The position numbers and the translations under genes are program-made. This document shows positions 16,930 to 64,000 of a DNA stretch of 64,000 nt, piece after piece. The notes below the pieces were generated by a model, which was not told the origin of the DNA, ran no database searches, and worked only from the letters and a program-made list of their open reading frames with translations. How positions within the stretch are numbered: position 1 is the stretch's first letter; the number at the start of each line of letters is the position of its first letter. Origin of the DNA: Candidatus Omnitrophota bacterium (GTDB taxonomy: Bacteria; Omnitrophota; Gorgyraeia; Zapsychrales; Zapsychraceae); contig JBFWOS010000003.1 in NCBI GenBank assembly GCA_050250375.1, positions 559,286 through 623,285 of the forward strand, read 5' to 3'.

Positions 16930-19536
16930 ATGAATCAATCATCCCCGACCCTTGAACAGACGGCCAGCGGTTCAGCCTCAGAAACACCGATGCTGAAACA
17001 ATACCACGCGCTAAAATCCAAACATCAACACTGCATTTTATTTTTCCGGCTCGGTGATTTCTACGAAATGTTTTATGATGATGCCAAGACCGCGTCCAAG
17101 GTCCTTGATCTTGTCCTCACATCCCGCGGAAAATCCCCGTCGCAGAAAGTCCCGATGTGCGGAATCCCGCACCACGCGGCCCAAAACTATATCGCCCGGC
17201 TTATTAAGGAAGGATACAAAGTCGCTATCTGCGACCAAATGGAAGATCCGGCCCTGGCCAAAGGTATCGTTAAGCGTGATGTAACACGGATCATCACCAA
17301 GGGAACTTACCTGGATGAAAATGATAACCAAACCCGGTATATCCTGGCGCTCAGCCTTGACCATAAAACTGCGGGCATTTCTTTTATTGATCCGGCCAGC
17401 GGAACCATTCAGACAAATCAATTCCCGAACGACCGAAAAATTCTAACCGAGATCATCGCCAATCTTCCGGTATTTGAATGTGTTTTCCCTGAATCATTGA
17501 CTGATCACATCCAACCCTGGTTTGAACAGCCGGTTTTAAAATCTAAAAATATCGTCTTAAGTCCTTTTGATGACTGGTGTTTTAACCCGGATATGACCCG
17601 AAAATCCCTGCTCGATCATTTCCACGTGCACAATCTCGTCGGTTTCGGGATCGAAGAACGGTTGTCGTCTGTATCCAGCTGCGGGGCTTTATTGGAATAC
17701 CTCAAACAGATGAACAAACAACCCGTCCGGCATATCGACAAAATAACATTATATACAAATGAAGACTTTGTTTTCATTTCGCCGGCCGCTCACCGCGGTC
17801 TGGAGTTTGACAACCTGATCAGGACCATTGATTTCACGCAGACCGCTTTGGGCAAACGTAAATTCAAGGACTGGTATTATCATCCGCTCAAATCAAAAGA
17901 ACAGATTGAAGAACGCCAGCAGGCCGTGGCCTTATTGCTGAAGAACCAAACCGTCCGGCACGAATTGGACCCATTGTTAAACAAGATCCCGGACCTTGAA
18001 AAAAATATATCCCGGCTCAGCTGCGGATACACCCACCCGCGGGACCTGATGGCCATCCGCAACACACTGGCCTTATTGCCGCAGCTAAAGACAATCGTCG
18101 AACCGCTGTCCCGGGAAAACATTTATTTCCGCATGGATGATATTAAGGAATTAAGGGAACTTCTCGTCAACGCCGTCAAAGAACAAATCCCGTTGACCAA
18201 TTATGAAGGGCAGGTTTTTAACAAAGGTTATCACTCGGAACTGGATGAATTGCGCGGCCTGCAGGAAAACGGACGTGCCTGGCTTAAAAAATACCAGGAA
18301 ACGGAAATCCGGCGCTCGGGCATTAATTCCCTCAAAATCGGGTTTAATAAAGTCTTTGGTTATTATCTCGAGGTCACCAAGACCAATGTTAAAAATGTCC
18401 CTCAGGATTTTATCCGCAAGCAGACGCTGGCCAACGCCGAGCGTTATATCACCCCGGAATTAAAAGAGTATGAAGAAAAGATCCTGACGGCTCAGGATAA
18501 AATCGCCAGAATCGAACAGACGCTGATTACAGAGTTGCAGCAAAAAATCCTGGAACAGTCCCTGGCCCTGCATCAATTTTGCCAAAGCATCGCGCACATT
18601 GACTGTATTTTTTCCATGGCGCTGCTGGCCGAATCACCGAATTATATTCTCCCGGAGATTTCACACGATGCGGTGATCCGGATCACCGACGGCCGGCATC
18701 CGGTAGTTGAAAATACGACGGCTGAAACTTTTATCGCCAATGACACTCTGCTCGACAGCGATGACAATCAGCTGATTATCCTGACCGGGCCGAACATGGC
18801 AGGAAAATCCACATATATCCGCCAGACCGCACTCTTGGTGATTATGGCCCAGGCCGGCAGTTATATCCCGGCGCGGAATGCCCATATCGGAATCGTTGAC
18901 AAAATCTTTACCCGGATCGGCGCCCACGATGATATCAGCAAAGGCCAATCCACGTTTATGGTGGAAATGAACGAAACTGCCGACATCCTCAACAACATGA
19001 CGGACAAAAGCCTTGTCATCCTGGATGAGATCGGCCGCGGGACATCAACCTATGACGGGCTCTCGCTTGCCTGGGCGCTGGCCGAACACCTGCGGACCAC
19101 CAGCACCCGGACATTATTCGCCACGCATTTTCATGAACTGACCGCGCTCGCCGACGAATACTCTTGTGTAAAAAACTATAATGTCGCTGTCAAAGAATGG
19201 AAAGACGAAATCATCTTCCTGCACAAAATCGTCCCCGGCAGCAGTGATGACAGTTACGGGATATATGTCGCCAAGCTGGCCGGTATCCCGGAAAAAATCA
19301 TCACTCACGCCCGTCAGATTCTAACCCAGCTCGAATTGAATAAAGACCTGAAAGAAGATCTGAAAAGAAATTTCCGGCAAGAAAACCAGCTGAACCTGTT
19401 CTCCTCCGTCAAGGATCCCGCGATGGAAGACATCAAAACCACGCTTCAGCAAATTGATATCAACCGTTTGACCCCGGTCGAGGCGCTGAACCGCCTGGCT
19501 GAACTCAAACAAAAATTGGAAGAACGTCATGAATAA
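16930..19536 (+). CDS. mutS: DNA mismatch repair protein MutS
   Basis: 868 aa. N-terminal mismatch-binding region (PMLKQYHALK..FFRLGDFYEMFYDDA) aligns with E. coli MutS. Walker A GPNMAGKSTYIRQ. C-terminal HTH. The start may instead be the internal Met at 16990. Confidence 0.9.
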   Translation: MNQSSPTLEQTASGSASETPMLKQYHALKSKHQHCILFFRLGDFYEMFYDDAKTASKVLDLVLTSRGKSPSQKVPMCGIPHHAAQNYIARLIKEGYKVAICDQMEDPALAKGIVKRDVTRIITKGTYLDENDNQTRYILALSLDHKTAGISFIDPASGTIQTNQFPNDRKILTEIIANLPVFECVFPESLTDHIQPWFEQPVLKSKNIVLSPFDDWCFNPDMTRKSLLDHFHVHNLVGFGIEERLSSVSSCGALLEYLKQMNKQPVRHIDKITLYTNEDFVFISPAAHRGLEFDNLIRTIDFTQTALGKRKFKDWYYHPLKSKEQIEERQQAVALLLKNQTVRHELDPLLNKIPDLEKNISRLSCGYTHPRDLMAIRNTLALLPQLKTIVEPLSRENIYFRMDDIKELRELLVNAVKEQIPLTNYEGQVFNKGYHSELDELRGLQENGRAWLKKYQETEIRRSGINSLKIGFNKVFGYYLEVTKTNVKNVPQDFIRKQTLANAERYITPELKEYEEKILTAQDKIARIEQTLITELQQKILEQSLALHQFCQSIAHIDCIFSMALLAESPNYILPEISHDAVIRITDGRHPVVENTTAETFIANDTLLDSDDNQLIILTGPNMAGKSTYIRQTALLVIMAQAGSYIPARNAHIGIVDKIFTRIGAHDDISKGQSTFMVEMNETADILNNMTDKSLVILDEIGRGTSTYDGLSLAWALAEHLRTTSTRTLFATHFHELTALADEYSCVKNYNVAVKEWKDEIIFLHKIVPGSSDDSYGIYVAKLAGIPEKIITHARQILTQLELNKDLKEDLKRNFRQENQLNLFSSVKDPAMEDIKTTLQQIDINRLTPVEALNRLAELKQKLEERHE

Positions 19537-21310
19537 AGTCCGCGTACTGCCGGAAGAAATTATTGCCAAGATCGCCGCCGGGGAAGTGATTGACCGGCCC
19601 GCGTCCGTGATCAAGGAACTGATGGAAAATTCCATCGACTCAGGGGCGGACAGAATCGAACTGCAGGTCAAAGATGCCGGAAAATCCGCCATATTTATCA
19701 AGGATAACGGCTGCGGTATCAGCCATGAAGATCTGGAAACGATCTTTCACCGGCACGCGACCAGCAAAATCAAGACGCTCGATGACCTGTTTAATATCCA
19801 TTCTCTTGGTTTCCGCGGTGAGGCCTTGTACAGCATCGCGGCTGTCTCAGATATTATCCTGCAGAGCAAGACTGCCGACCAGCCGGAAGGCTGGCAGATC
19901 CACACGCGCGGCGGACAGAAACAAGCCCTCAAGCCCTGTGCCTTTAACGACCACGGCACGCATATTGAAATCAAAGAATTGTTCTTTAATACACCGGCCC
20001 GGAAGAAATTCCTGAAGACCGATGCAGGTGAGTTTCATCAAATCCTGGGCACGTTTATCCCATACACGCTTCTGCATCCGCAGATCCGTTTTAAACTGAC
20101 CCATCAGAACCGTGACGTCATCGATCTGGCGGCGATCAGCGACCTGAAGAGCCGTGTCGCCCATGTCCTGAACCTGAAAGAAGAACATCTGCTGGATTTG
20201 ACCGAAACATTTCCTGAACAAAATCTTGAGATGCGACTGATCCTGGGTGATATCAATATCAAACGATCCCGGCGTGACCTGCAATATGTCTTTGTGAACG
20301 GCCGGCCGGTGTTTAACAAAAATATCGCATATCATCTCAACCAGATCTACCGGCTCATCCTTCCTCCGGAGTCTTCGCCGTTTTTTATTCTCTATCTGAC
20401 ATTACCGGCGGCGGATATCGATGTGAATATCCACCCGACCAAACGGGAAGTGAAGATCAAAAATGAAAGGGAAATTTGTTCGCTCCTGCGCAAAATCGGC
20501 GAACAGGCTCTCATGTCGTCTTCCGGGATGAAACAGGTTTCCTTTCCGGCCAGACTGGCGACACCGGTTGAACAATCATTCCGGTTCACTGGCGGGCAGC
20601 CGGATGAAGGTTCAGGGCCACAGCCGCTATTTGAACCAAACACCGCAAATCCGTATGAAGCCGCAAATAAGGACTACGCTTACCCGCGGGCAAATGAACC
20701 GCGGGATTTCTATATCCCGTCCGGACGTTCATTAACAGAGGAAAATATCCAGAGCAAGCTTGAGGACGCGCGTTATATCGGGGCTTTCATGCTTAAATTC
20801 TTATTGTTTGAGTCGGGAAGAAACCTGCTGGTGGTGGATCAGCACGCGGCCGCAGAACGGATCACCTACGAAAAACTCATCCGCCATATGGAAAAAGGCG
20901 ATGTCGAAATACAGCCTCTGTTGAGTCCGGTCCTGGTGAGCGTCACTCCCCAGGAACTGGTTGTTTATGAAGAAATACAAGAGGAATTTAAAAAAGTAGG
21001 CCTGGAAAGTTCCCTTTTTGATCCGCAAACTATTGCCGTTCATACCCAGCCTTTGCTTTTAAGGGACGTAGAACAAACCGTGCGTTACCTTTTGGCCGGC
21101 GACAAGATCACCAACCGTGACCACGACCAAATCGCCCGCCGGGCCTGCCGCTCATCCATTATGTCCGGTGACAAACTCAAACCCGACCAGGCCGAATTCC
21201 TGCGTGAAGAACTCCTGCAATGCCTTGATCCATTTACCTGTCCGCATGGACGACCGACCGTCATTGAATTGACTGAATCATTTTTTGATCAGCAATTCTT
21301 AAGAACATAA
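19529..21310 (+). CDS. mutL: DNA mismatch repair protein MutL
   Basis: 593 aa. GHKL ATPase N-terminus (IAAGEVIDRPASVIKELMENSIDSGA, IKDNGCGI). 8-nt overlap with the mutS end. Confidence 0.9.
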   Translation: MNKVRVLPEEIIAKIAAGEVIDRPASVIKELMENSIDSGADRIELQVKDAGKSAIFIKDNGCGISHEDLETIFHRHATSKIKTLDDLFNIHSLGFRGEALYSIAAVSDIILQSKTADQPEGWQIHTRGGQKQALKPCAFNDHGTHIEIKELFFNTPARKKFLKTDAGEFHQILGTFIPYTLLHPQIRFKLTHQNRDVIDLAAISDLKSRVAHVLNLKEEHLLDLTETFPEQNLEMRLILGDINIKRSRRDLQYVFVNGRPVFNKNIAYHLNQIYRLILPPESSPFFILYLTLPAADIDVNIHPTKREVKIKNEREICSLLRKIGEQALMSSSGMKQVSFPARLATPVEQSFRFTGGQPDEGSGPQPLFEPNTANPYEAANKDYAYPRANEPRDFYIPSGRSLTEENIQSKLEDARYIGAFMLKFLLFESGRNLLVVDQHAAAERITYEKLIRHMEKGDVEIQPLLSPVLVSVTPQELVVYEEIQEEFKKVGLESSLFDPQTIAVHTQPLLLRDVEQTVRYLLAGDKITNRDHDQIARRACRSSIMSGDKLKPDQAEFLREELLQCLDPFTCPHGRPTVIELTESFFDQQFLRT

Positions 21311-21361
21311 ATGCTGCATTGATTAACGGGTGTCATCTCAAAATTCCAAGAATTTTCCATT

Positions 21362-24300
21362 CTAACGCCAGACGATTCTCAACTCACCGGCCGGAAAATT
21401 AAAAACAAGGACAGGTTCTCCGTTTTCATCAATAACAATCTCACTCTGCCCCAGGTGAATCCAGTCGAAAAACAAATTAGGGATGCGCATGAATCTGCGG
21501 TCATTTTCATCGAGATAACTTTCCTGATAAATCCGTTCTTCTTCCACCCAAACACCCGCTGGAATAAACCAGGCCGGCACTGGAGTGACCGGCTGCGGAA
21601 TAATAAAATGGTCCAACACCCGCAATTGTTCCATCAAAAGTTCTTCGTGACCGATAATGTTTAACGGAATGTTAATAGATTTCTCGATCGGGATGATTTT
21701 AAAATCGATATAAAGACGGCCCGGAACTTCTTCAACCGGTTCCGGCGGCAAATACTGGGCCAGGAATCTCAGACGTTCAAGGACAAATGGATAATCCGGC
21801 AGGCCGGTCAGAGGAACGTCAACAAATTTTTCGATCGGCGGCATCGTTTTATCAATCTTGACCACATCCGGATATCTTCTCAATGGTTCGGGTGGTAAAT
21901 ACTGTGCTAGCATCCGCATCCGATCTCTAATAAAATCGTAATCCGGTAATCCAATGAGCGGAATATCAACGGATTTTTCAATCAGTTCGACTTCTGCATC
22001 TATCTTAACCGGCAAAAGCATGGCATCCTCTTTACTTAAGACAACCCGATAAATTTCGTCCCCCAAGTGATCGGCCTTAAATTTTTTCCATTCCTGACGC
22101 TGGTCACGTCTAAACCGTTCCCGGATCTGCTGTATGTAACGGACATCCTGCTCTTTGATCTTTTGGGTATAGAACTCCCTCCACGCCGCGGTATTTTTAG
22201 ATGACGTATCATAAAGTTCAGGCAGACCCCGGGTCAAATACAATTCACGAGCCAGTTGCGCCTGTTCATCCTGTCCGTTTGTTCCATCTCCTAGATTTGA
22301 AGACGCTATAAAGACGGCACTGCGTCCAACCTGTTTTTTCGTCAAATCGCCGGGTTTACGTTCAAGATCGCTCAATGGAACATCCACTGATTTTTCAATC
22401 ACGTCCATGCTCTTGTCAATCCTGATGACATCCGGATATCTTCCAACGGGCTCCGGCGGTAAATACTGCGCCAACATTCTCATACGCTCCCGGATAAATT
22501 CATAATCCGGCAACGCGGTCAGCGGGATGTCAACCGATTTCTCAATAGGATCCATGCTCTTGTCAATCTTGACAACATCCGGGAATCTTCTCAATGGTTC
22601 CGGTGGGAAGAACTGTGCGAAAGCCTGCATTCGTTCTCTGATAAAATCATCAACCGGCAATCCGGTCAACGGGATATCAACAGTTTGTTCGATCCGTCCT
22701 ATCTCTTGATCAGCTCCGGTCTGATCAAACACAATCGCGTAGGCCGCATCCTCTATATGATCTTCTTTGAATTTCTGCCATTCGGGGCGAAGATCCCTCT
22801 TAAAACGTTCCCGTATTTGCCGGATAAACTGCATATCTCCTGACTTAATTTTTTCACTGTAATAATCCCGCCAGACCGCCATCTGCTTCGGCGTGGTTTT
22901 ATACATCTCGGGAAGCCCCCGCGTTAAATATAACTCACGAGCCAATTGTGCCTGACCCTCCGTTCCTTCGGAGTTGTCTCCCATCATGGACGAAGCCAAA
23001 AAGACCGCACTGCGCACGACCGGCCTCATCAATAAAGCACCCGGCTTACGTTCAATGTCACTTAAAAGAACATCGACTGACTTTTCGATCGGTTCAAGTA
23101 TTTTGTCGATCCTTATGACATCCGGATATCTTCCAACGGGCTCCGGCGGTAAATACTGCGCCAACATTCTCATACGCTCCCGGATAAATTCATAATCCGG
23201 CAACGCGGTCAGCGGGATGTCGAGCGACTTCTCGATCGGTTTCATGGTCTTGTCAATCCTAATCACATCCGGATATCTTCCCATGGGCTCCGGCGGTAAA
23301 TACTGAGCCAGCATTCTCATACGCTCCCGGACAAACTCATAATCCGGCAGTCCCGTCAACGGGATGTCGATGGATTTCTCAATCTTGACCAGATCTGTGT
23401 TGATCGACCCGGGATTAAATACAATTTCAAAAAATTTTTCGTTTAAATAGTCTTCTTTAAATTTCTGCCATTCCGGACGCAAATCCCGTTTAAAACGTTC
23501 ACGGATCTGCCGGATTATCTGGACGTCCCCGGCTTTAATCTTTTCGACATAATAATCCCGCCAGACCGCTGTCAGTTTCGGTGTACTTTCATATAACTCA
23601 GGAACACCCGTCGTCAAATACAGTTCGCGGGCCAACTGCGCCAGGTTTGATTGGCCAATGGTCTTGTCGCCGGCGCTGGATGAAGCAAAAAAGACCGCGC
23701 TGCGTACAACTGGCCTCTGCGCTAAATCTCCGGGCTTGCGTTCGATATCGCTTAATAAAACGTCAACGGATTTTTCGATCCGCTCCAGGCTCTTGTCAAC
23801 TTGAACCAGGTCCGGATATCGGCTGACTGGTTCCGGCGGCAAATATTGGGCCAGCATCCTCATACGCTCCAGGATAAATTCATAATCCGGCAGGGCTGTC
23901 AGCGGGATGTCGAGCGACTTCTCGATCGGTTTCATGGTCTTGTCAATCCTAATCACATCCGGATATCTTCCCATGGGCTCTGGCGGTAAATACTGAGCCA
24001 GCATTCTCATACGCTCCTGGACAAACTCATAATCCGGCAGGGCTGTCAGCGGGACGTCGATGAATTTTTCAATCCTGACTGTATCTTGAATGGCCTTCTC
24101 TTTATCAAAGACAGCCGCGTAACGCTCATCGTTCAAGCGGTCCTCTCCAAATTTCTTCCATTCAGGACGCGTGTCCCTTTTCAACCGTTCCCGCAATTGC
24201 CGGATAAACTCACGATCACCCGTCTTGACTCTTTCATCATAAAACTCACGCCACACTGCCTTTTGTTCCGGCATACTATCAAACATCTCCGGAATTCCCG

Positions 24301-27300
24301 AGGTTAAATAAAGTTCACTCGCCAAAATGGCCGGATGATCCGGCCCTTCGGACTTGTCCCCGACAATCGCTGATGTCAGAAGCAACGATCCGTGCGTGAC
24401 CGGCCTCCTCGAAGAATCACCCGGTTTGCGTTCAATGTCACTTAACGGGACTTGAATTGTCTTTTCAATCGGATATAAATTAATCTTGATGTACGGACGC
24501 TGCGGAACTTGTTGAACAGGTCCCGGAGGAAAATACCGGGCAAGCATCTTCATCCGCTTAACCACAAATTCGTAATCCGGCAACGCCGTCAACGGGATTC
24601 TAACAGGCGGTTTCACCGTTTCCATAACCCTTTCAATCCTGACGGGTGACGGCACCCTCGTAACCGGTTCGGGAGGCAGATATTGCGCCAGCAATCTTAA
24701 CCGGTCGAGGACAAACGCATTATCCGGAATGGCCGTCAGCGGGATCTCGATGTAATCTCTCGGCCGGATTACGACCGGGTCAATCCGCGGCATGGCTGGG
24801 ACGGAAAGGAATAATGGATCCGGGAGTTTCGTCGGTTTGTAATCTAAGGTGATCAGGGCAAACATCAAAGGAGGATGTATGATCGGTAGAATGCGGAACG
24901 GTTCAGAATTTATAATATTTACCCTGAATCGCAGAGGATCGCGCAGATACAAAATATTCGGAATTACTTTAAACATCTTTTGTCCATTCGAAACTATAAC
25001 GCCAAACGGTCCCCATTTTCTAGAAAATAAAGGTTCTGCGACTTGGCTGTATAACGGTGTTCCTCTCCATATAGATATATCATTGTCACCTGTTTTTTGC
25101 CCTAAACTTTCGGGTTTTCCGAACCTCGGATAAAGAATTTCCTTCCATAACTTCAACTTGACCGGTTCGTTTGCATCCGCGGTTCTCAGGAAAAACTCCG
25201 TTGATTTTCCGGCAGGCAATGTGACCTGTAAGTACCCGCCTAAGTCCAGTCCGCAGCCTTCCGGGTTCACACAAAAATCCCGGAGGTAATAAATAATCGG
25301 CCACCGCGGGAAGAACGGTTCACGGTCATCAAAGTATTCTTCGTAAAAGACCTGGTAACGCAAATCCCATCGTCGGTCTGCGCCGAATTTTTCAAACGCC
25401 AGACGGCGTTCATCAACCCTCCTCGTACTGATCCCGGCGATAAGCGTGTTATCCGTTTTGGCCAACATCGAAGAATCATCAGACGTACTTGCTTCTTTCA
25501 AGTCCTCAAAGACAACCCCATAATCCTTGTTCTCTTTCCGGTCTTCTTTAAACTGCTGCCATTCCGGACGCTGGTCTCGGATAAACCGTTCCCTGAGTTG
25601 CCGAATATATTCCTGGTCCTTGTTTTTTACCTTGCGGTCATAAAACTCCCGCCACGCCGCAATTTGATCAGGGCTGGTTTCATATTTTTCCGGGACACCT
25701 TTGGTCAGATCCAGTTCCTTCGCCAACAAGGCCTGGTCTCCTTCACCCTCGGCTCTGTCGCCTGTATTGGTTGAAGCAAAAAAGACAGCGCTTTGTTGAT
25801 TTTCTCCTTTGTAAATTCTTTCTGATTCAATAACCGCGTGAATGACAACCTTCTGGTAGTCACTCATCGCTTTTTTACTCAGGAGAATGTTATTTATATT
25901 CGCCCATAACGATTTAACAAGTTTATTCATGTATTCGACTAATAAATCCAGCAACGATTCAATAAACTCTGCCCCCTTGAAAAGGATATTCAAAGCACTT
26001 TCCTGATGATGACTTTGCTTCAAATCCGGTATCGTCAAAGGAACATCAATGGATTTTCCAATGATAAATTTATCTTCAGCCATCATCAGCGGACCGATAA
26101 TATCATCGACCGTTAACTCAGGAAGAGTCAGTCCCGTAAGCAAGAAATGTTCCGTCTGAACCGGTTGCAAATTAACATAAACGGAGTCGGCTAACCGTCG
26201 GGTAGCAGGCATCTTGAATGACTGCAGCTTGATACCGGCTAATTCAAAGACGATTTTATATTCCGGATGGTTGACCCGGTCAGACCTGAAGTGCTGCCAC
26301 TCTGGTCTAAGATCCGTTTCGAAACGCCGGGCAATCTGCCGTACATATTCGGCATCATTTGATTTTACTTTTTGATCGTAAAAATTCCTCCAAGCCGCTA
26401 TTTGTTCTTCACTGCTTTCAAACAATTCCGGTACACCTTTGGTCAGATCCAATTCTTTAGCCAACTGGGCCTTATCATCATTACCGGACGTACTGTCTCC
26501 TGTATTGGTCGATGCGAAGAAAACGGCGCTTTGGCGGACTGGACGTTCTTTCCGTTCCCGTATTTCTTCCACGGCTCTTGTGACAATTTCCTGACGGTGA
26601 ATCATCGCTTCTTTATTCAAAAGGACGTCTTTGATCTTGGCCCACATAGAATCAAAAAGTTCATTCAGATAATCAACCAGAATATCCAGCAATGATTCGA
26701 ACTGGGTCAACGCCTCAAAGGAAATATAAACTGCAAACTTCTGGGAATGAGTATCATCCAGATCTGGTATAACCAACGGGATGTCGATGCTCTTTCCAAT
26801 CATCAGTGTTTCCGGGATAACAAACTGACGATCCAGAAGTTCATCAACAGATAATCGAGGAATGCTTAACGGTTCATTCCATGGTGTTTCCACCCAAATC
26901 TGATCAACACTATCCGATATCGGTTGAACGACATATACATCGACAACAAATGATGAACGGAAAGTTGCTGAACCCGTTTCGATTCCAGGTCCGGATATTA
27001 TACGTCCGAACACGGATTTGTATTCCGGTTGGTTCATACGGTCTTTTCTGAACGATTGCCACTCTTCACGCTGGTCAGTTTCAAATCGTCGGGCGATTTG
27101 TTCAATGTACTTCAGATCGCCGGATTTAACCTTTTGATCATAGAAGTTTCTCCATGGGGCGCTCTTTTCAGGTGTCGATTCATAAATTTCCGGAACTCCC
27201 CTGGTCAGGTCGAGTTCCTTGGCCAATAAGGCCTTATCATCCGCCCCGGCAACACTGTCGCCGGTATTGGTCGATGCAAAGAATACCGCGCTGTATGTTT

Positions 27301-30300
27301 CCAGGGCATTCTGATTTTCCTGAATGAATTCGAGAGATTTGTCTCTTGATACGACCGGAAGCGCGACCAGTTTTGGATAGGTGTTTTCAACCAAGCCCGG
27401 ATCAGCCGTTTCTCTAATTTTCAGGTACAAGGCGTCAAACAATCTGGTCAAATATTCAATCAATAAATCCAATAACGATGTGTCTTTCGTCCAATGCTCG
27501 GCAAGGACATATTCGGCGGCCCTTTGCGAATGAGTTTGGTCCATATCAGGAATGACCAGCGGTACATCAATGGATTTACCAATAGTCAGCGTTTCTTTGA
27601 CAACATCCAGCCCGCCTAGTATTTCTTCAACGCTGATGACCGGCAAGGCTAATGAAACATACGCGGCTTCGCTTCCGTTGTTTCCGGATTCAATCGCATA
27701 GGCTGATGAAACCAGACGTTCAGCCGTTTTGATTTTTCTTGTTTCCGGTTGTTCTGACATTAATCCGAAGACAACGGCCCAGGCTGGATTATCTTGACGG
27801 TCTTGTTTGAATGCCTGCCATTCCGGCCGCTGATCCAGTTCAAAACGCTGGGCGATCTGCTGGACGTACCGCATGTCTTTTTCGGCCACTTTCTTGTCAT
27901 AGAAGGTTCTCCAGGCGGCATCGGTGTCAGTCAGTTCAGGAACACCGCGGGTCAAGACAAGCTGTTTGGCCAAAAGCGCCTGGTCATCTTGACCGGCACT
28001 GCTGTCGCCGGTATTGGTGGCCGCGTAAAAGACAGCACCGACCGGGTTGGCGTTTACAATAGTGTCTTGTTTTACAGTTTGTTCTACCTGAACATCCACA
28101 ACAGCCAGGTCATGAACGGCCGGCAAAGTTACACCGGTTAACACAGTCTCTATCGCACCGCTTATTTCCGCGCTTCTCTTGCCTTCTTCTATTTTCTGAT
28201 CGGATACGATCCAAAGCTCACCGAATAACCTTCTTAAATAATTGATCAGAATATCCAGCAGTGAATTATCTTCAAATAATTTACCGATGTTGATCGTAAC
28301 GATTATTTCTTCTTCCTGGGCTGCATCAACAACCGGCAACATGAACGGCACCGCCAAGGCCTTTTGAATGAGGGTTATGCTCGGTGATTTGTCTTCCGGC
28401 GGCAGAATCATGGCTTTGGCGGAATCAGCCAGAATATTGAGGATGATCTGCCGGATATCCCGTTCAGCCAGCATTGATTCGTCCTCGCCTTCCGCTTTCT
28501 CAGCCGTCAGGTTATGCCCGAAAGCTTTCGCCTGCGACGGATCAATTAAGTGCGCGATCAATTCATGCGGAAGTCCGGTCATGACTTCTTCGCTGTTGTC
28601 AACCGGAACAAAATCCAACCCTTCAAGACTGATGCCCAGGGCAGTTAAACTTTCAAATTGTTCCCGGGTACCAACGGCCAGATGGGCGCCGGATTTGATC
28701 ACCGGACCGACCAGTTCATGTTGGAAAATTTTATCTTGATCGAATAAACTGAACCGGGTCGCGACCAGCTTGACTTCACCGAGCCTCAAGTTGTCTTGTT
28801 CCACATCCACGAACCCTGCCCCGAACGGATGGAACAGACCTTGATGGACAATCCCGCCATCGGAGAACTGCGCGTGGAACGGATCGGCGCTGGCTTCAAC
28901 CTGCTTATCATGGTATTCGGCCTTTTCATTGATCATACCGAGAACCTTGAGCATCTTGCGCTGGATAACGATGTTCTGCGCGTCTGTCCTTCTGAATTTC
29001 TGGATTTCTTTGGACGGACCGCCGACCAGGTGAAGACCGATCAACTCGTGAAGCATGGCTTCGGCGCGTCTTTCATCGGTATATTTTTCACCGGACATCT
29101 CTTCCGGATTTCGTCCGATATCTAACAAGAATCCGTCGTTCAGATCGGACGCGCGGGTGATAATGACATTGTTGTGGTCTTCATCCGCGAACCCGGCCGG
29201 GAAGGCGTTCTTCATCAGGTGTTCGAAAATAATCCTTTGGGTGGCGCTCATCCCCTTGAACACATCCAGATCACCGATGCCTCTGAAGTCAAGATCAAAC
29301 CCGTTTTCAATCAGGACATCATTAATGTCTGCGATGATAACGGCCGCGTCGGATTTAGATCCATCTAGAGTTTTTACGGCTTGACGAATTTTTTCTACAC
29401 GTCCGATAAAGGCTTTTTCTTTGGCGCTTAATGTCTGCGGTTTCGGACTGCTGTTAGCGGCAAATACCCGTTGGAACATCCTTTGATCTTTTCTTCCGCT
29501 GAAGTCGTCCCCAAAATGCGCCGCGATCCTGGTGATAATCTGATCATAAACCTGCCGGTCAAATAATTGACGTTGTTCATCCTTGAATTGATCCAGCATG
29601 CCTATTGTTTCCTGGGCGCCCAATTCAACCAGCGCCAGCACATCGATGGAAGGATTGTTCGGGTCAAGCGCCCGGGCCATCATGTCTCTTAAGTCTTCCA
29701 TCAATGCCCGGAAAGCTCCGGTCATTTGTTCCGGTTTAATCAGGACTTCATCCAATCTCTTCACGATGATTTGCGCAGAACGATGATAGGATGAATATTG
29801 CGGGTCAGCCGGATTGATTTCACTGATCTTCAAAGCCGCGCCTAATAATTTCTGCATGTACAGGTTCCATTTTTGGAAATATCCGACAAACTTGTTGTCG
29901 TTGGCCCGTTTGTCGTCCAGTTCCAGCGCCCGGTCAAATCCCTGTTTGGTCACCCGTCTTGTTATGACTGTCGGTTTTTTCTTGTTTCCATTTTCTACTT
30001 GATCACGGATTATTTCCTGTTTCGTGAAGTAAACGGATTTATGGGCCTTTTCTGTGCCTTTAAGATCGACCTCGACAATTTCCGGGGTGCCGTTTTCTTT
30101 AATTTCGTAAACAGCCCGGCTGATTCTAAGTTTGCTGGTAAACGGCTGTTTGACATCCAGTTCAAACTGACGTTTCGCGTCGGCCCGGATGACACGGTTG
30201 TCATGGATCGCAAGGTCGTGGCCGATCAGGCTGAAACGGTGCATCAAATCTTTATATTCTTTTTCGGTATTGTCGAAGTACGGAACTTCCAAACCTTTTT

Positions 30301-33300
30301 CGTAACGTTTTCCTTCGATGGTTACCGTTTGAGCCAGAACTTGTTTTTCCAAAATGAGTTCGCCGGATGATTCTACTGTCTTGATCATCAATACAGGAAT
30401 GTAGACACGTTTGCTCTTTCCGCCTTCGGTATATTTGTAAACAAACCGCTGTTCATACTCGACCCGTCCGTTCTCAACAGCGATGATCTTGCGTTTGTAT
30501 TGGTCACTACCTTCATTCCGTTCAACAAAGGTGACTGCGTTCGACTGTTCATCTTGCTGAGCTCCGGTCATAAAGGCCGTATCTGTAACGATCATGTTGG
30601 TTTCATAAATCAATTTTTGTCCGTAACTCAGCTCTCCGCCGAAATTCAATTCAAGTGGTTTATCTTGATGATCCGCGGTGATGCTCATGGCGCTGGCGGC
30701 AACAACAACGGTCTGACCGTCAGCGTTTGTTTCAAAGGCCGTAGCCTGGTATGTTTCAAAACCGGTTCCGGCATCGATGGAAACATTGATTGCCGTCGTT
30801 CCGGTCCTGTTGAGGGCAATTATGATCCTGCGTTCGGTGTTTTCCGTGATCAGCTGATTGATTTTTTGGTTGACTTCCGACTGGGTGATGCGGCCGGCCT
30901 GGCTCTTGGCCGCAGAGACCATACTGTGGATTTGTGACCGGACTTCCAGAGTATCAAGGATTGTTTCAGCCAGGAACCGCTGACGGCTTACATCGCCTTC
31001 CGCGACAGCATGTTTAATATCGCGGCGCATCGTCAGGTTAACGTTCGGATCGTTCTCAACAATAATGATCAATTTGGCCCGATTAATATCCAGACGTTGT
31101 ATGCCGGAACCTTCTCTCAAATTTGAACGTGAGGTGAACTGGATAGCTTCCGCTGTTGCAGTTGATCCGATAAATACCGTGTTGGCTTTAGTCGGTGCTT
31201 CGCCCCGGATCTTAGCCAGGATGTTGGAACCGCCGGAGAGACCTAACTGAACGACGATGACTTCCAGGTTAGGATCTCTTTGGGCTTGCTCAACCAATCG
31301 TTTGGCCGCGGCTTCCTGCACCGGATCCGGCTGACCTTTCAATACGGCATCTTCTCCGACAATAACGATTAATTTCTCCCTGCCGAATGAGACTTTCTCG
31401 CCGTCCATCAGTTCAACGTCCCTGACCCTAAAGACATTGTCCGTCCCTTCAACCGGACTGGCGGTTCGGAGTAAACGTTCCCGTAATTTTCCAAATCCCA
31501 GTGCGTTCCAGATGGAAACGAGGATGACCCGGGCGCTGAGCGTGTTCAATTCAGGATCCGTTATCGTTTTCAACAAGACGTCAACCACCGGTTCGCCCGG
31601 CCGGTCATAGCTGGCCCTGGTCAAATCAAAGTTTAATTCCAGAACATCCGGCAGCCCGGATTCTTTACCGGCCCTGAATATCCTGGCGCCCTGCATTTCC
31701 GCAGACAGGCGCATAGATTCTGCGGTCGCCGTCATACCGATCGCACCGGCCACCAGACGATGGACATCCGCCGCCTTGACAGCGTGTTCAACCTTAGACA
31801 ACGCAGCCGTCATGTAATTATCCAGTTTCAGCCGTTCGATGGTGACGATGGCCCGGGCCAGATGGGCGTCTCCCGGGATAGTTCCCGGTTGAGCGAATTT
31901 GTTGACCGTCAACATATAAATACCCAGGTCACTGTCGGCATCCCGTCCGTAGACCGGGTTATCACGGGCATACATCGCCTCGACAAACGCATTCACTTGT
32001 TCCGTGATCTCTTTGCGGGTTTCCGGAAGCACTTCAATATTCTCTTCCCTTAATTTATTAATTTCACGCTGATATTCTTTGAAGAACCTGGCCAGCGGAG
32101 ATAACTGTTCACCCTCAAGCAGGTATTCGGAACGAAGGACCGGGCGTCCGTGCTGATCGACATCAAAGATCAATTCTTTCTGACCGTTGACTTCGCTTAA
32201 CATACGGTCGAGTATTTCATATTTGATCATATCCTGACGGGCCATCATTTCCAGTTCAAGCAGTCTCTGTTTCGCTTCGGCATTACCGGCCTGCGCCTGT
32301 TCTCTTAATTCCTGCAGTCTTCGTTGTCCCTTGATCAAATCAGCGGACCGTTCAAACGCGTCGCTTTCGTCGTTGATTTCAAAGACACGTTTGCCGGTTT
32401 CGCTGTTCAATAATTTGAGAGACACCAATTCTTTTGAATCTTTGAAGTCTCCGACGTTGATCCCTTCTTCAAGGTTAAATTTCCCTTCTTGTTTGACTCT
32501 TCGGATTCCGCCTTTTTCAACGATTTCACGCAGCAACGGATGGTTCATGAAATCACCAACCTTGGCTTCCGGTACGTTAAACAGGATGATCACTCTGCCG
32601 TTTGTTTTTCTGTACAACCAGCGGGCAATGGCTGCAGCCAGGTCAGATTTACCAATACCGGTATCGGCGGAAACGATATTAAATTCGCCTTTCTTGTCCA
32701 TAAACGCGCGGGCTGTTTCTATAAAGACCTTGGCCGCGTGGATCTGTTTGAGACGGCCTTCGGATAAGTCGTAACGGGTATTGTCACCTTTGCTGATAAT
32801 ATAGGCTTCCATATCGCGTTTGACTTCAGCCAGGAATTCGTATAATTCCAGGACTTCATTTTCAAACCGGCTTCGGTTTTGTTTGGCCGATAATTCTGCC
32901 GCCCGTTCTCCATCTTTAAACAGACGCTCGACTTCTTTTGATACTTCGATATAATGCAGGTTGATCTTTTCTGTTGATTTTGTCTCGGATGGTGTCTTTC
33001 TGACGGACGGTTCACTGGATCCCTGTTTATTATTTCGGCGGACAGATGGATCGACACGGTCCAAAATACGGCCCAGCCGGGATGATGACCGTTTAGCGGA
33101 CAGAGCCGAACGATCCTGATTATCTGAACCTCTTTGAACATCTTTCCGCCCGGAACGGACCACCCGTCTGAACACTCTCAATATCCATTCATACCACGGA
33201 TCTTCCGGCGGCTCCGGAGGACCGTTAGCCGGACCAGACAACAACGAGTCTTTAGCGTTAGCTTTTTTATTATCTGAACGGGAATTGGATGATGACCCGC

Positions 33301-36300
33301 CCTTGCCGCCAAACCCGAACAGGCCACCCATAGCCATCGCCATCATTGTGTGTGCATCACCGCTAGAATCTGTTCCACTGACTAACGCATATCCGAGAAC
33401 GACTGCCAGGATGATAAACGGCCCGAAGTGATCTCTGAAGACCACCCGTCCGATAAGATGGAACAACCGTTCAACTAGATAACCGACATACGCGGCCATG
33501 GCCGTCAAGAACCCGATCTTGTAAATGATTCTCCAGTCTGAGGTCACGTTGAAGTATTCAAAAATATCATCCCATGCCCCGTCAAAAATGATCTCTTTGA
33601 TTTCCGGAGAAACAGCTGCCCCAACAACCGCCGCCGTCAAAATAACGACAAACCAGACAAACCACCGCACCCACTGTTTGTAATCGCTGGCCGGGTTTCG
33701 GAAGATATTCTTCGGTCCTTCCACAAAGACCAGTGAATCATGGATCTTCTTGATGCGGATCGCGCGTTTGATCTTGCTGTATACGACCTTGACCGCGGCC
33801 AGACCGAGAAGACCAAGGACAACGGTTAATATGGAGACAGCACCTCTACCCTTAGTTCCCGATTCCCCAATCGTAACTTTAGTTTCTTTATAAGAACGGG
33901 TGCTGTCTCCAAGATCCTGAGGATCAAGTTGTGCAAGAACAGGGGCAATGCCATTAACTTCAGTCTCCGATTCCCCAATCGTAACTTTAGCTTCTCTTAA
34001 AGAACGGTCATTGCCCCTGTTGTTTATAGATTGGACAGCGTCATCACTTTCAGTCTCCGATTCCCCAATCGTAACTTCAGTTTCTGTTAATGAACGATGA
34101 ACGCTGTCCTCGATTGCTGTTTGGCCGCGGGCTTCATTCGTGGTCAGGATAACCAGCGCGAGAACGCCCAGGATAAACGGCATTAAATATCTCACGGCAC
34201 GCATGATGCGGTTTGCTGCCGGGACCGGTTTCGATTCCTTAATCATGATACCGGCGTCAACCAGAGATCGGGCGTGTTCAATCATGCCGCCGTTTCGTCT
34301 GGCGATAAAGTATTGTTTGATGTGTTCCAGCCCGCGTCCGGCGATATCATCAACGATGGCCGACATAAATCCGCTCCGGTTTCGGCTGCTGATGAAGTTG
34401 ACGACGCGTCTGGCGTTGACGAATGTCTCTTTATCCAGAAGGATCGCCGCGATACCCAGGGCGGCGGTTCCTTCAACCTTCATGCCGAAATGCTGCAGAA
34501 GGGCCATGGTGTAAATAGAATCCACATCCGCGACCCGGTAGGCGCCGTCGGCATATTCACGGAAGCGGTCAATCGCCGCCGGTTCAGGTGTGGCTGCGTT
34601 GCCGTCGGCCGGCATGTTGTTGGCGGCCGGGATTTGTTCCCTGATCGGAACGGCCGCGCCCTGCTGGATCGTGCGGAAACTCATGTCGACACGCGGTGTG
34701 GTGAACCCGTAGACATGCGCTTGCGGAATTCTGTTCTTGATTTGGAGTCCGGTTCCGGCAATCCATCCGGTTGATCCCATGGCCATGGTCACAACTAATT
34801 CACCTTCTTTTAGTTGTTCAATATTGATGGCCGGATCAGCGATGTAGCTTTGAACAACTTCTTCTCCGCCGGCGGCATAACCTGTACCAACCCATTCTTC
34901 AGCTGCTTTATCAAAATGACGGATCTGCATTTTGTGCCGCGGATCTTCATCCACCAGTTTCCAGACGACCTGTTCGGCTTCTTCATAACTTCCGTAATCG
35001 GCGTACAACCGTCCGCCGGCGTTTTTAATATTATTCTTTTTGTGTTCCAGGATATCGGTATCTGAATAAACGACTCCCTGCATGGTCTCAACCATTTCAA
35101 TAAATTGCGCCTGCGTTAAACCGCCCAGCGGCTCTCCGGTAAAGATGCCCGGATAATCCCGCTGCAATTCCAGGAACAGACGGACGAAATAAGCGTATCC
35201 GTTTTGCTGTAATTTTTCTTTGACCGCACGCACCGCGGTGACGGTGGCCAGGCCGTGGTTACCGGTAGAAACAGCAATGACTTCATACGGGATCTGTCCT
35301 TTGAGGACACGGACAAAGACTTCAACCGGCGCGCGGTTCTTGAATGATCCGGTACGGTATTGCCCCTGACCTTCGGCTTCGAAACCGTAAGATTCGTCTT
35401 TGAAGTCGATTCGGATCTCGCGGCCTTCTTCCCGTTCCAGAATGTCATTGACGAACCGGTTGATGCCTTCGATGGTTGTCAACGGCGTGGCTGACGGAAC
35501 AAGACCGAATTCACGCTGCAGCCGCAAGGCCGCGTGGACCTTTTCATCCGTAATGCCGCCGGCTTCTCTTCTGGCTTTAGCTTCGCGATGCGATAACGGC
35601 GTCAGAATAACCCGGTCAATACCGACCGGCAATCCTGTTGGGGTTGTTTGCGCGCGATGGATGCGACCTGACTTCTTCAATAACGCTTTAACGGAGAATA
35701 AAATTCTCTGGGCAGCAGCACGAACTCCAGTTCCCGATTCCCCAATCGTAACTTTAGCTTCATCTGTTAATGAACGGCTGCTGCCCATATCTGTTGTGTC
35801 GCGGTACGCGACAATAATCGGTGTTTCAAAATGTTGTAACGAAATTGTCTGCGGATAGCCTTGAATGGTTTCTCGCACTTCTACGGTGAACCCGAGGCTT
35901 CTTAGATGACTGATGAAATAATCTTGATATTCCGGTTTGTTTTCATCCTGATGAAGTCTGACAAACACGAGACTCTTAGACAATGGTCTGAAGTAACGAT
36001 CCAGATTCTCGACCAGGTCTTTGTTCGCGCTGCGGTTCGGCGCATTGATGCTCACAATATCAAATTGACGTCTGAACCGTTTATGTTCTGCGGCATCACT
36101 GATGCTGATATTTCTGTTTTCTGCGCGGCCTTTGCGGTCATGCTGACGTTTGTTTTGAATCAGATAAGAATGGTCAATGCCGGCGACTCGGGCGAATAAG
36201 CCTGTTTCTTTATTTTCCGCCACAATCCGGTCGGCGAATTCATTACGGGTACGGCCGGATCCCAGGTCAATCAACGATACCGGTTTTTGCGAACCAAAAT

Positions 36301-39300
36301 AATCCCGGATGATCGTATAGAATTCAGTTTCAGAGGCAGCGCGGTTGACTTCCGTTTCCGATTCCCCAATCGTAACTTTAGTTTTGTCTGTCGAAGATCG
36401 CGCGCTGCCTCTGATATCTTTCCATATGCGGATGAAAATCCATGTAAATGCGACGGCCGCCCCAATAATGATCAGGGCTAAGAACCTGGCCAGGAATGTT
36501 TCCACCGGACCGTCGTAAGACGAACCATACGCCGGAGCGGCCAGGCCTGCCGCTGCTGCAACCAACCCGGTTTTAACGAGAGTATTGGAGGCCATGCGTG
36601 TCACACCAGTTTCCGATTCCCCAATCGTAACTTTAGTTTCATCTGTTAATGAACGTACATGGCCTCCAAAATGAATTCGGGTGAAATGAACAGGGACGGC
36701 GTAATAACCTTCGGTTTCCGATTCCCCAATCGTAACTTTAGCTTCATTTGTTAAAGAAGTTACGCCGTCCCTATATTGGTCAAAGTGATTTAAGACAGTT
36801 CCCTGCGAATTGATCGGGGCAGCACGTGTCACATCAGTTTCCGATTCCCCAATCGTAACTTTATTCTTCTTCGCAAAAGAAACGGACACCGTTTCTTTTG
36901 CTTCGAAGGAATATTCCTGCCCTGCTCCGCCGTAGCGAAGACTGTTTAAGACAGGCTTCGCAGAGGCGAGCGAAGCAAAAATATTGGATTGATCCGCGCC
37001 GCGAAGCAGAATAGTTTCATCTGTTAATGAACGTGTGCCGTCCCGATATTGGTTGACCGCGGCCATGGTGCCGATGCTGATGACCGCGACCAGAGTTATA
37101 AATGCTGTCCGGCTGAAAACAGCGCGCTTGATCCATTGTTTGAATTGATAAAGCCGAGGATATGATTTTTTCTGATAAATGTTGATGTAAAGATCGATAT
37201 AGACTTCTTCGAACCTCTCCAGGCTGTCTTTAACGCTGTAGTGTTCCAGTCCGTATTCTTTTAACAATTCCAAAGTGATCGCCCGGGCGGATTCGGCCTG
37301 ATGGCCTTTCTGTTCATCTTCGTTGAATAGTTGTTTAAACAGTTCGAATGCCTTGGCCTGGTCTTCCATCGTGAAGATCTGACGGACAATCTTGCGCAAC
37401 AGGTTGTCGGCGGCTTCCTTGACGACCGGCTGGTTCTTTCGGGACATGTCGCGCTCGTACAGGTGGGTCAGCACATCGACGGATTTCTGATCGATCTGGC
37501 TGAGCCGGGCGAAGACTACTTCCCCGACAACGTTCGTCAACCCTTCGGCATCTTTTAATACCAGACGAACCACTTCATCTCTGATTTCATCATCGTAAGC
37601 CTTGAATTTGCGTTCAGATTCGTCTCTTCTTTGGTCAACCGCGATAATCGTTCCCAACAGCAGGATGATCCAGGCTGTATTGCGGTTATACGTTGTCAAC
37701 CCGCGCTGAATACTCAACAAATGTTCAAATGAATCTTCGATCAAATCTCTGGTGTCTCGATGTTCAATGTAATCCACATACAGCCACGGGATCAGTGAAC
37801 CGCCGGACATGGCCGCTTCTTTGTTATCCAGTGTCTGCAGAATTTCCCTGACGTCGGATCCTCGAATGACATAACTTTGATTTCTGGACACAAACCGTTC
37901 GATGGAATCTCTTGTTCTTAACAGGTAGACAAACACCGCTAACGAACCGTGCAGGGCGATTTCATCTTCCGGATGAAGGATGATTTCATCGATCTGCAGG
38001 ATGTTTTCCATGACCGTGCGGTCAAGCTGCTGCTCGAGGACATCCATAGCTTCCTGATATTCAGCTGTTTTTCCGATATAAAGCAGATGAATGATCAGGC
38101 CGCCGAGCGATTTCGCAAGGACTTGATGAAGCTGTTCGCTGTTTTGTTTGTAGGCACCGGCGATTCGGAACAGGTTATAGATCAATGTTCCATAGAATGG
38201 TTCTTCAGGAACCAGCATAACGCGCCAAATATCACGGTTTCCGGTGACCGGGTCCCTGGTGTCCAGAACACCCTCACGTAAGAACCGGGCGACGTCATCT
38301 TTAGTTGTATTCGGACTTTGCAGCAACAGCCGGTGGAACGGCGCGACTTCGAGGTTATGCTGCATAATAAATTCTTTGGTTTCATGAACACGGGCCAATA
38401 ATTCCGTTCCGCTGTCGTCGGTCATTTGCTTAAACATTTCAACCAGCTGTTCATCGGTATAAGCCAGATATTCAGCCGAAACAGGTCCGACAATCTGTTT
38501 AAACACGTCAATGAATGAATCCTTGTTTTCAGACTGTTGCGGATCGAGCCCAAGCAGGTTGAATAATTCTAAGCGTTCCTTCGAACTATAGGTGGCCACG
38601 TGGCTTCTGAATTCGAACAGCAATGATTCTCGGGCCTTTTGTTCATCCAGATAATCCTGGATCATCAGCGACCAGATACCGAATCGTACGGCCAGATAAA
38701 GCGTAACCTTCCAGCCGTCTTTTAACCGGACAGGGAAAGCGCCCTGACTTAGAGTATCCGATTCCCCAATCGTAACTTTAGTTTCTTCAAAAGAACGGGC
38801 GCTTTCCCTACCAGATTTATTCTCGAGTAATTTGTTTATGTTAATCACAATCATTGACTCACGGACATCAACGATATACTGACTTTGCGGTTCATTGACC
38901 AGTTTGACAAAATTATTTCTGCGGTTCGTGTTACCGAATAATTCATAGAACCGGGCGTACAGGAAGGCGTATGTATTGAGCGTATCCCGGGTGAATCTTA
39001 AAATCTTGGCTGATTCGATTCTGGATAGTTTTAAATGACCGATGTTTCCGGAATCAATGCCTGAATAACGCAGGCGGACCTGCTGGACGTCAAAATCATC
39101 GGCCAAATGATGAGTTTCAATCTTTGCCAGAAGCTCAGCGGCTTGTTTCTCAAATAAGCTGTCTTCTGTATGTGAACGGATCTCGGCGATAAATCGGGCC
39201 CGTATACCGTAATCCAGTTTCAGGACCTGCGTGGCCAGGGCTCTTGGCGTAATCAGCCAGCGGCGGATGCCTTTCAGGTCGCGTAGTGTTGATAACAGAT

Positions 39301-63976: not shown

Positions 63977-64000
63977 GGCTTCCCCTTCCTGGACGATTCT

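Follow-up and report, generated by a model that had tools for sequence, protein, structure and literature searches.

The distribution, divergence and relatives of a tandem repeat array were analyzed in a stretch of 64,000 nucleotides (nt) from a Candidatus Omnitrophota bacterium (contig JBFWOS010000003.1 of assembly GCA_050250375.1, positions 559,286 to 623,285 of the forward strand), which is called the window below and whose own positions are used throughout. The array is encoded by a giant open reading frame (ORF) on the minus strand, which is called at 21362..63976 in the ORF list and stays open in frame up to the window edge at 64000. Its translation gives the C-terminal 14,204 codons and a stop codon at 21362-21364, the sole stop in frame 0 of the window part. 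By an exact match of the neighbouring MutL protein, the window is placed on contig JBFXCX010000002.1 (872 kb) of assembly GCA_050181705.1, where the product of the called gene has 32,445 residues; the window covers 14,204 amino acids (aa) of it, the N-terminal 18,241 aa fall outside, and the residue numbers given here refer to the window part. The array under study, named array B, is the extreme C-terminus of this giant protein. An earlier note on this DNA, made from the letters alone, had placed a tandem array at 21400-24750, and an array does lie there, on the minus (coding) strand.

Array B (21566-24760, minus strand, aa 13073-14137; more widely taken, 21539-24760 and aa 13073-14146) was delimited by DNA and protein self-BLAST, alignment and a module map made with profile hidden Markov models (HMMs), and lies in the last ~1,130 residues of the protein. 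It consists of four super-repeats with the order Y-Y-(Y-like leader)-X, which are followed by Y, Y and a degenerate Y. A super-repeat has 230 aa (690 nt) and is built of two Y modules of 49 aa each, a Y-like leader of ~20 aa with the sequence IEKSVDVPLSDIERKPGD, and an X module of ~103 aa. In the direction of translation, super-repeat B1 (24071..24760, aa 13073-13302) is the most divergent copy: its protein is 45-48% identical to those of the remaining copies, and its DNA is 62% identical to that of B2. Thereafter come B2 (23381..24070, aa 13303-13532) and B3 (22691..23380, aa 13533-13762), the latter being a mosaic in the codon alignment and mismatch map, since it agrees with B2 in its first Y and with B4 in its second. 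B4 (21980..22690, aa 13763-13999) is lengthened to 237 aa by 7 residues inserted at its end. The terminal Y, Y and degenerate Y (21566..21979, aa 14000-14137) were recognized by the Y profile with independent E-values of 8e-30, 1e-25 and 2.5e-5, and the translation closes with a non-repeated C-terminal tail of 67 aa (21365..21565, aa 14138-14204), which gave no module match. All these features are on the minus strand, the units are in register at 690 nt across all junctions and the reading frame is intact.

The Y module is a proline-rich unit of 49 aa, and Tandem Repeats Finder returned the corresponding period of 147 nt. Its consensus is EKSVDIPLTALPDYEFIRERMRMLAQYLPPEPVGRYPDVIRIDKSMxPI, with 10 invariant positions, and array B holds 10 good copies of its motif IPLTALPDYEFIRERMRMLAQYLPPEP, besides a degenerate one and four that are truncated to leaders. 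The earlier note had counted at least nine copies of a recurring motif, which agrees with these numbers, although it had given the unit as 36 aa rather than 49; its period of 700-710 nt is likewise replaced by 690 nt (230 codons), the sole 711-nt step being that from B4 to the following unit (B5). The X modules of array B lie at 24095-24403, 23408-23713, 22715-23023 and 22025-22333 on the minus strand and were matched by the X profile with independent E-values of 1e-41 to 1e-45. The conserved features of X are GD, L.LT.G.PE, A.WR..Y and Q...R...D.R..W, and 20 columns are invariant in an alignment of 16 X copies from two genomes. Module matches inside the array had E-values of 1e-24 to 1e-50 over the HMM searches.

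A second array, array A (25496..28369, minus strand, aa 11870-12827), was found by protein self-comparison and in the module map. It contains four units with a period of ~250-262 aa, in which the same X module is paired with a third module, Z, whose opening is IGKSIDVPLxIPD; the DNA identity between its units is 66-68% by blastn. The two arrays are separated by a non-repeated spacer of 245 aa (24761..25495, minus strand, aa 12828-13072) that has no module match and no Pfam match. The spacer from aa ~13009 onwards aligns weakly with aa 2995-3198 of the giant ORF of a related genome, L003, which is described below. A short motif, I-[EG]-K-S-[IV]-D-[IV]-P-L, opens every Y, every Z and the leader before each array B X (aa 12132-14105), and it is kept in the Omnitrophota relative L003 at aa 994-3814. 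This motif could be a strand at the module boundaries or a processing site. X, Y and Z are thus three unannotated modules which fill the last ~2,300 residues of the 32,445-aa protein.

The identity between the units was then the central quantity, as the earlier note had estimated more than 95% DNA identity between them and had raised recent expansion, gene conversion or a collapsed assembly as causes. Whole units of array B are only 62-75% identical in DNA. Self-blastn gave 70.7% identity over 2,359 nt at an offset of one unit and 68% at two units, and the ungapped identity at offset 690 was 69% for B4/B3, 75% for B3/B2 and 62% for B2/B1. The super-repeats share 45-70% protein identity, and the pairwise DNA identity of Y units is 52-94% among the ten good copies and 40-94% among all eleven, with only two pairs at 90% or more. 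Identity above 95% is confined to two islands, which were delimited on the minus strand by exact-repeat search and mismatch map. Island 1 is a 107-nt stretch of B4 (22425..22531) that is 100% identical to 23115..23221 of B3, and it is the longest exact repeat of the array; on a background of 65-78% identity such a perfect run has a probability of ~1e-12 per start position. Island 2 is a 143-nt stretch of B3 (23208..23350) that is 98.6% identical to 23898..24040 of B2. The near-identical pair of ~190 nt singled out by the earlier note belongs to the surroundings of island 2: its high identity stands (94.3% without gaps by blastn between 23167-23360 and 23857-24050), with the partner starting at 23857 and not at 23877.

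Synonymous (dS) and nonsynonymous (dN) divergence was computed on codon-aligned units by the method of Nei and Gojobori (NG86). Over whole super-repeats dS is 1.15-2.4 and dN 0.15-0.47; over the X parts dS is 1.1-3.3 or not computable and dN 0.22-0.44; in the two islands dS is 0.15-0.17 (0.15 in island 1 and 0.17 in island 2) and dN 0.01-0.02. In the codon-aligned comparison the same codon is used at only ~40-50% of the identical residues outside the islands, and at 16/17 to 18/18 of them inside. Array B is old, with synonymous sites between its units saturated, and a recent expansion of the array is contradicted by this codon sharing and by the dS values. The dN/dS between units is well below 1, so the units are under purifying selection and therefore encode something functional.

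The two islands have a different history from the remainder. Their tracts abut in B3, one being common to B4 and the other to B2, and similarity drops to ~65% just outside each tract. Such a drop right beside the tracts fits short-tract gene conversion and not a crossover that created B3; we infer that the two abutting tracts were recently homogenised in this way. That one unequal crossover between B2 and B4 had produced B3 was considered and ruled out, as the ~65% similarity is found directly outside the tracts on both sides. Of the suggestions made earlier, gene conversion is thus retained for two short tracts of ~110-190 nt, where dS is low and nearly all codons are shared, and it does not extend to the rest of the array.

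The relatives of the modules were searched in proteins, genomes and metagenomes. In an exhaustive HMMER run against 1.84 billion representative proteins, the super-repeat profile hit five: a fragment of the same gene (P0001), three real relatives (P0002-P0004) and one spurious match. The last one, P0005, has MucBP-like repeats and an E-value of 4e-4, and was rejected. The three relatives are partial hypothetical proteins on contigs of 1.8-2.4 kb from one Candidatus Omnitrophica metagenome-assembled genome (MAG) with locus tags K8I00_*. A Y-pattern scan of the GTDB representative genomes gave two loci, L003 from HK-STAS-OMNI-4 and L004 from HKST-UBA13, both Candidatus Omnitrophota MAGs, in which the matches lie near the C-terminus of a giant ORF. 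All searches combined gave relatives of X, Y and Z in only three other Omnitrophota MAGs, and every relative found carries the label Candidatus Omnitrophota or Omnitrophica. Several other searches added nothing. The word-prefiltered protein search with B3 returned only the 348-aa fragment of its own gene, and the same search with the 16-row X alignment returned nothing, although P0002 and P0003 contain X, which makes the prefilter limiting. The genome scan with a window-only X pattern gave no relative, the pattern being too specific, and two metagenome scans with Y and X patterns gave no confirmed relative.

The motif had been described earlier as unfamiliar, and this is borne out, for it has no relative in Pfam or PDB. 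A Pfam search with every X and super-repeat copy at E-values up to 10 gave only scattered sub-threshold matches (LEH, PLAC9, mL52), which were rejected as chance, and profile searches of PDB with X and Y gave a best E-value of 0.18, which was also rejected.

The giant ORF of L003 corresponds to that of the window by its order as well as by its modules. Residues 11212-12823 of the window part align collinearly with aa 2-1723 of the L003 giant ORF at 42% identity. A MutL gene identified by Pfam (19529..21310, plus strand) is convergent with the giant gene and serves as synteny anchor, being 67% identical to a gene likewise placed downstream of the giant ORF in L003. The collinear giant ORF together with the convergent MutL at this identity makes the giant genes syntenic orthologues. 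The MutL gene itself (593 aa) overlaps by 8 nt with a MutS gene (868 aa), the pair spanning 16930-21310 on the plus strand, and the ORF upstream of MutL in L003 is likely MutS by its position. The 51 nt that part MutL from the giant gene contain neither a terminator-like hairpin nor any other terminator-like or promoter-like site.

The module order of L003 in the HMM map is Z X Z X X X X X X X Z X ... Y (Y') Y ... Y Y y X Y Y Y Y'. The syntenic genes of L003 and L004 thus have one X between a Y-Y-(partial Y) block and a run of four Y, against four Y-Y-X in the window, and L003 has a tandem X-only array with a period of 133 aa where the window has Z-X units. There are 10 X modules in L003 and 9 in L004; these two loci have ~90-92% DNA identity and differ by exactly 399 nt, or one X unit, which is either a real difference or a collapse in one of the MAGs. 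The stretch of the X-only array that holds this difference is 4085-5531 in L003 and 4235-6080 in L004, and the two L003 X units nearest to it have 87% DNA and 93% protein identity. When the X modules were placed in a distance tree, those of array B (wB1-4) formed one cluster and the tandem units of L003 another; the first X of array A (wA1) pairs at 71% identity with the first L003 X (L3_832), of which it is the one-to-one orthologue. On these sequence comparisons array B appears to be specific to this lineage, and the lineages of the window and of L003/L004 would therefore have amplified different units after their split, possibly reinforced by concerted evolution. Copy-number change, which the earlier note had expected of such repeats, is accordingly seen across species, in the 399-nt X unit and in the four Y-Y-X against one X; in this genome itself the array has the look of an old and stable one.

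The remainder of the giant protein in the window carries many enzyme domains. Pfam gave, between aa ~1490 and ~9870, an M23 peptidase, a 6-phosphogluconolactonase-like domain, alpha-amylase, GH77, CBM48/GlgB and GT5, and further GT1, HAD, alpha/beta hydrolase, GlnD/NTase and PALP domains; the GH77 4-alpha-glucanotransferase match has an E-value of 8e-169. A near-complete glycogen and starch toolkit is fused in this one polypeptide. A crude Kyte-Doolittle scan of the window part, in which a segment was accepted at a mean hydropathy of at least 1.8 over 19 residues, gave 22 transmembrane (TM)-like hydrophobic segments, the last of them at aa ~10184. Arrays A and B sit within the ~4,000-residue tail without TM segments that follows, and the last 4,212 aa of the protein have no Pfam match.

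These properties were compared with those of the Omnitrophota giant proteins of the Archaeovorin, or multi-enzyme, class, whose type protein is in Velamenicoccus archaeovorus, as described by West-Roberts et al. 2023 (bioRxiv 10.1101/2023.11.21.568195) and in a 2026 preprint (10.64898/2026.06.07.730766). The likeness is found in a product of at least 30,000 aa (32,445 residues here), in GT5 starch-synthase-like, GT1, glycoside hydrolase (GH77, alpha-amylase), CBM48/GlgB, M23 peptidase and HAD domains on one polypeptide, in numerous TM-like segments (the 22 of the crude scan) with long unannotated stretches, in the lack of the dockerin or TSP3 repeats of the Dockerin-type class by Pfam over the window part, and in relatives that are all in Omnitrophota MAGs. 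Of the divergent SecA-DEAD helicase, methyltransferase, NUDIX and N-terminal C39/S8 peptidase domains of the class, none was found by Pfam over the window part, which leaves out 18,241 residues at the N-terminus. The surroundings differ, as PilZ and solute-binding genes are reported downstream of most giant genes and MutL and MutS are downstream here. By its size, enzyme content, TM-like segments and want of dockerin and TSP3 repeats, the host protein would belong to the Archaeovorin class on its window part. In the 2026 preprint, repeats which diverge in nucleotides while the protein architecture persists are reported as the pattern for the bulk of long Omnitrophota genes (10.64898/2026.06.07.730766), and array B matches this pattern. 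Modules X, Y and Z have no Pfam model and are not described in the available parts of either source (10.1101/2023.11.21.568195; 10.64898/2026.06.07.730766). They are an unannotated new element inside a known kind of protein.

Structure prediction was done for one super-repeat and for X alone. AlphaFold2 with a 9-row paralogous alignment modelled the 230-aa super-repeat at low confidence, with a mean predicted local distance difference test score (pLDDT) of 49 and no strands seen; each Y appears in this model as a single short helix (EFVRERMRMLAQ) between unstructured proline-rich segments. X alone (11 rows) reached a pLDDT of 68.7, with 71-89 over residues 40-103, and has six helices and an all-alpha fold; its conserved N-terminal AVFFASTNTGD segment is unmodelled. 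X models as an all-alpha bundle that may be weakly like an alpha-solenoid, and Foldseek with the X model gave nothing significant. HEAT repeats are reportedly the domains found most often in Archaeovorins (10.1101/2023.11.21.568195). X differs from the HEAT/ARM alpha-solenoid in its length of ~103 aa, with a non-helical conserved N-terminal third (AVFFASTNTGD), against ~40 aa for a HEAT unit, and in having no sequence match to HEAT, ARM or TPR and no significant Foldseek match. Figure 5 of West-Roberts et al. 2023 has an antiparallel beta-helix tubule with external paired helices over ~1,000-1,500 aa; the super-repeat model shows no strands, but it is of low confidence (pLDDT 49) and spans 230 aa. 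When compared with the tandem arrays of other giant bacterial surface proteins, array B is like them in its in-frame units, in copy number varying between related genomes and in local homogenisation of neighbours. It differs from classic contingency-type arrays, as its units are composite (Y-Y-X) and far more diverged, with 62-75% DNA identity and saturated dS.

Taken as a whole, the likely explanation of these data is that array B is the C-terminal repeat tail of a membrane-associated, multi-enzyme Omnitrophota giant protein, an old array with local conversion, and that it may serve as a scaffold. X may be a small all-alpha bundle of HEAT/ARM-like form and Y one short amphipathic helix between extended proline-rich segments, as the models suggest. 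X and Y together might form an elongated, semi-flexible scaffold or a multivalent platform for protein interaction, in which helical X modules are spaced by Y pairs; this is the weakest step of the proposal. The scaffold would be placed at the end of the TM-free tail, the number of repeats would set its length or its number of binding sites, and the number of units would change by unequal recombination between repeats.

Several observations weigh against this explanation. The super-repeat model is poor, and the N-terminal third of X and most of Y have no confident model. X matches no HEAT, ARM or TPR family of Pfam in 16 X copies at E-values up to 10, and a ligand-binding or catalytic site could lie behind its many invariant charged and aromatic residues. 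The common origin of wB1-4 in the distance tree could partly reflect concerted evolution and not lineage-specific duplication. The 32,445-aa protein itself was absent from what the protein libraries returned, so these may lack very long proteins, and X and Y may be less rare than they seem.

A bolder proposal, which we hold as doubtful, is that X, Y and Z are three undescribed domain families of a small clade of Omnitrophota with a shared boundary motif, and that the Y-Y-X array, at the free end of the giant protein, is a multivalent docking or tether device whose repeat number is tuned by lineage through unequal recombination. If it were true, the number of Y-Y-X repeats would set the reach or avidity of the contact apparatus of a predatory or episymbiotic cell. 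It is more speculative that the boundary motif is a processing site which cuts the tail into separate modules. The three modules are conserved in the syntenic gene of related MAGs, under purifying selection, and differ in copy number by lineage. They give the growing knowledge of giant proteins in Omnitrophota a concrete case with clear limits, and no current view is overturned by it. Profile models for the part of these proteins that lacks annotation could be started from X, Y and Z, and the arrays of X and Y lend themselves to structure prediction and to binding experiments.

Among the alternatives to the scaffold role, X could be a repeated ligand-binding module for carbohydrates or cell-envelope polymers that gives avidity for prey surfaces, with Y as a spacer. 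West-Roberts et al. (10.1101/2023.11.21.568195) propose that the giant proteins act in prey adhesion and in the processing of cell walls, which agrees with such a role. Starch- and glycogen-active domains are on the same protein, and X is rich in invariant W, Y, R, D, E and Q residues over the 16 copies from two genomes, among them W51, R52, Y55, Q69, R73, D77, R79 and W82. X is nevertheless unlike any carbohydrate-binding module or lectin family by sequence or fold searches, and it models as all-alpha, whereas known carbohydrate-binding modules are mostly beta-rich; ligand binding by X is therefore judged unlikely.

The near-identical islands could also be an artefact of assembly or polishing, in which reads mapped wrongly to a neighbouring unit and the local consensus was homogenised, for both are short and fall where Y is most conserved, and in B3 they adjoin each other. 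An independent assembly bears on this. A Logan contig (L002) comes from run SRR27751815, a run that a paper on landfill metagenomes lists (bioRxiv 10.1101/2024.05.30.596742); it matches window 17529-22454 at 100% identity and has its end at 22454. This end is 30 nt into the 107-nt repeat (its first base 22425 plus 29), which is the branch point expected at k=31: the first 31-mer common to both copies of island 1 is 22425-22455, and a k=31 unitig coming from the unique side must therefore stop at 22454. The break at the repeat edge implies that the reads contain the repeat in each of its two contexts, assuming that the contig was built from the reads of SRR27751815 alone, and so it weighs against an artefact of polishing. 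The islands also keep a few real differences (2/143 nt) and do not have pasted identity throughout. An artefact of this kind appears quite improbable.

Another alternative is that near-identical units expanded recently, or that a larger number of copies was collapsed in the assembly, with the true copy number higher and unstable, as the earlier note had thought possible. The two islands of 98.6-100% identity are present, the short-read assembly breaks inside the array, the homologous gene of a related MAG is shattered into contigs of 1.8-2.4 kb, and the copy number varies among related genomes. The 107-nt exact repeat is why short-read graphs fragment in array B. This longest exact repeat is shorter than a typical read and the other sequence is easily told apart; with units otherwise diverged at ~30% of sites, collapse of extra copies is unlikely. 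No unit reaches 95% DNA identity over its whole length, synonymous divergence is high, the unit junctions are all in the 690-nt register with the frame intact, and the independent assembly is identical up to its branch point. A recent or collapsed array is accordingly highly doubtful, the assembled copy number is probably right, and the flag of more than 95% identity and possible collapse can be lowered for an array that is old and resolvable.

Selection on the nucleotides themselves, through an RNA structure or a translation-pausing element, is hardly credible as the source of the island identity, since, although the islands coincide with the most conserved peptide LPDYEFIRERMRMLAQYLPPEP, other Y pairs with the same peptide and 80-86% protein identity have only 78-85% DNA identity and saturated dS (1.37 for the second Y of B2-B3 and 1.19 for that of B2-B4), no nucleotide element was found on either strand, none having been sought, and the ORF list has no plus-strand ORF of at least 100 aa in 21.4-24.8 kb.

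Some further features of the giant protein were recorded. A segment of ~158 aa is duplicated at 50% identity at aa 111-268 and 1070-1227 (~63173-63646 and ~60296-60769, minus strand); each copy has a HEFGH motif (HExxH, zinc-metalloprotease-like) and neither has a Pfam match. A short repeat, SLTxETKVTIGESETE, with a period of ~36 aa occurs at three distant sites, aa 1659-1850, 9037-9215 and 9941-10048 (~58427-59002, ~36332-36868 and ~33833-34156, minus strand), all of which adjoin TM-like hydrophobic segments. Over the window, the skew of guanine and cytosine (GC) is persistently negative from 1 to 36 kb and near zero beyond, and the GC content rises from ~0.41-0.46 in the part with small genes and reaches 0.50-0.56 as the N-terminal end of the giant gene is approached.

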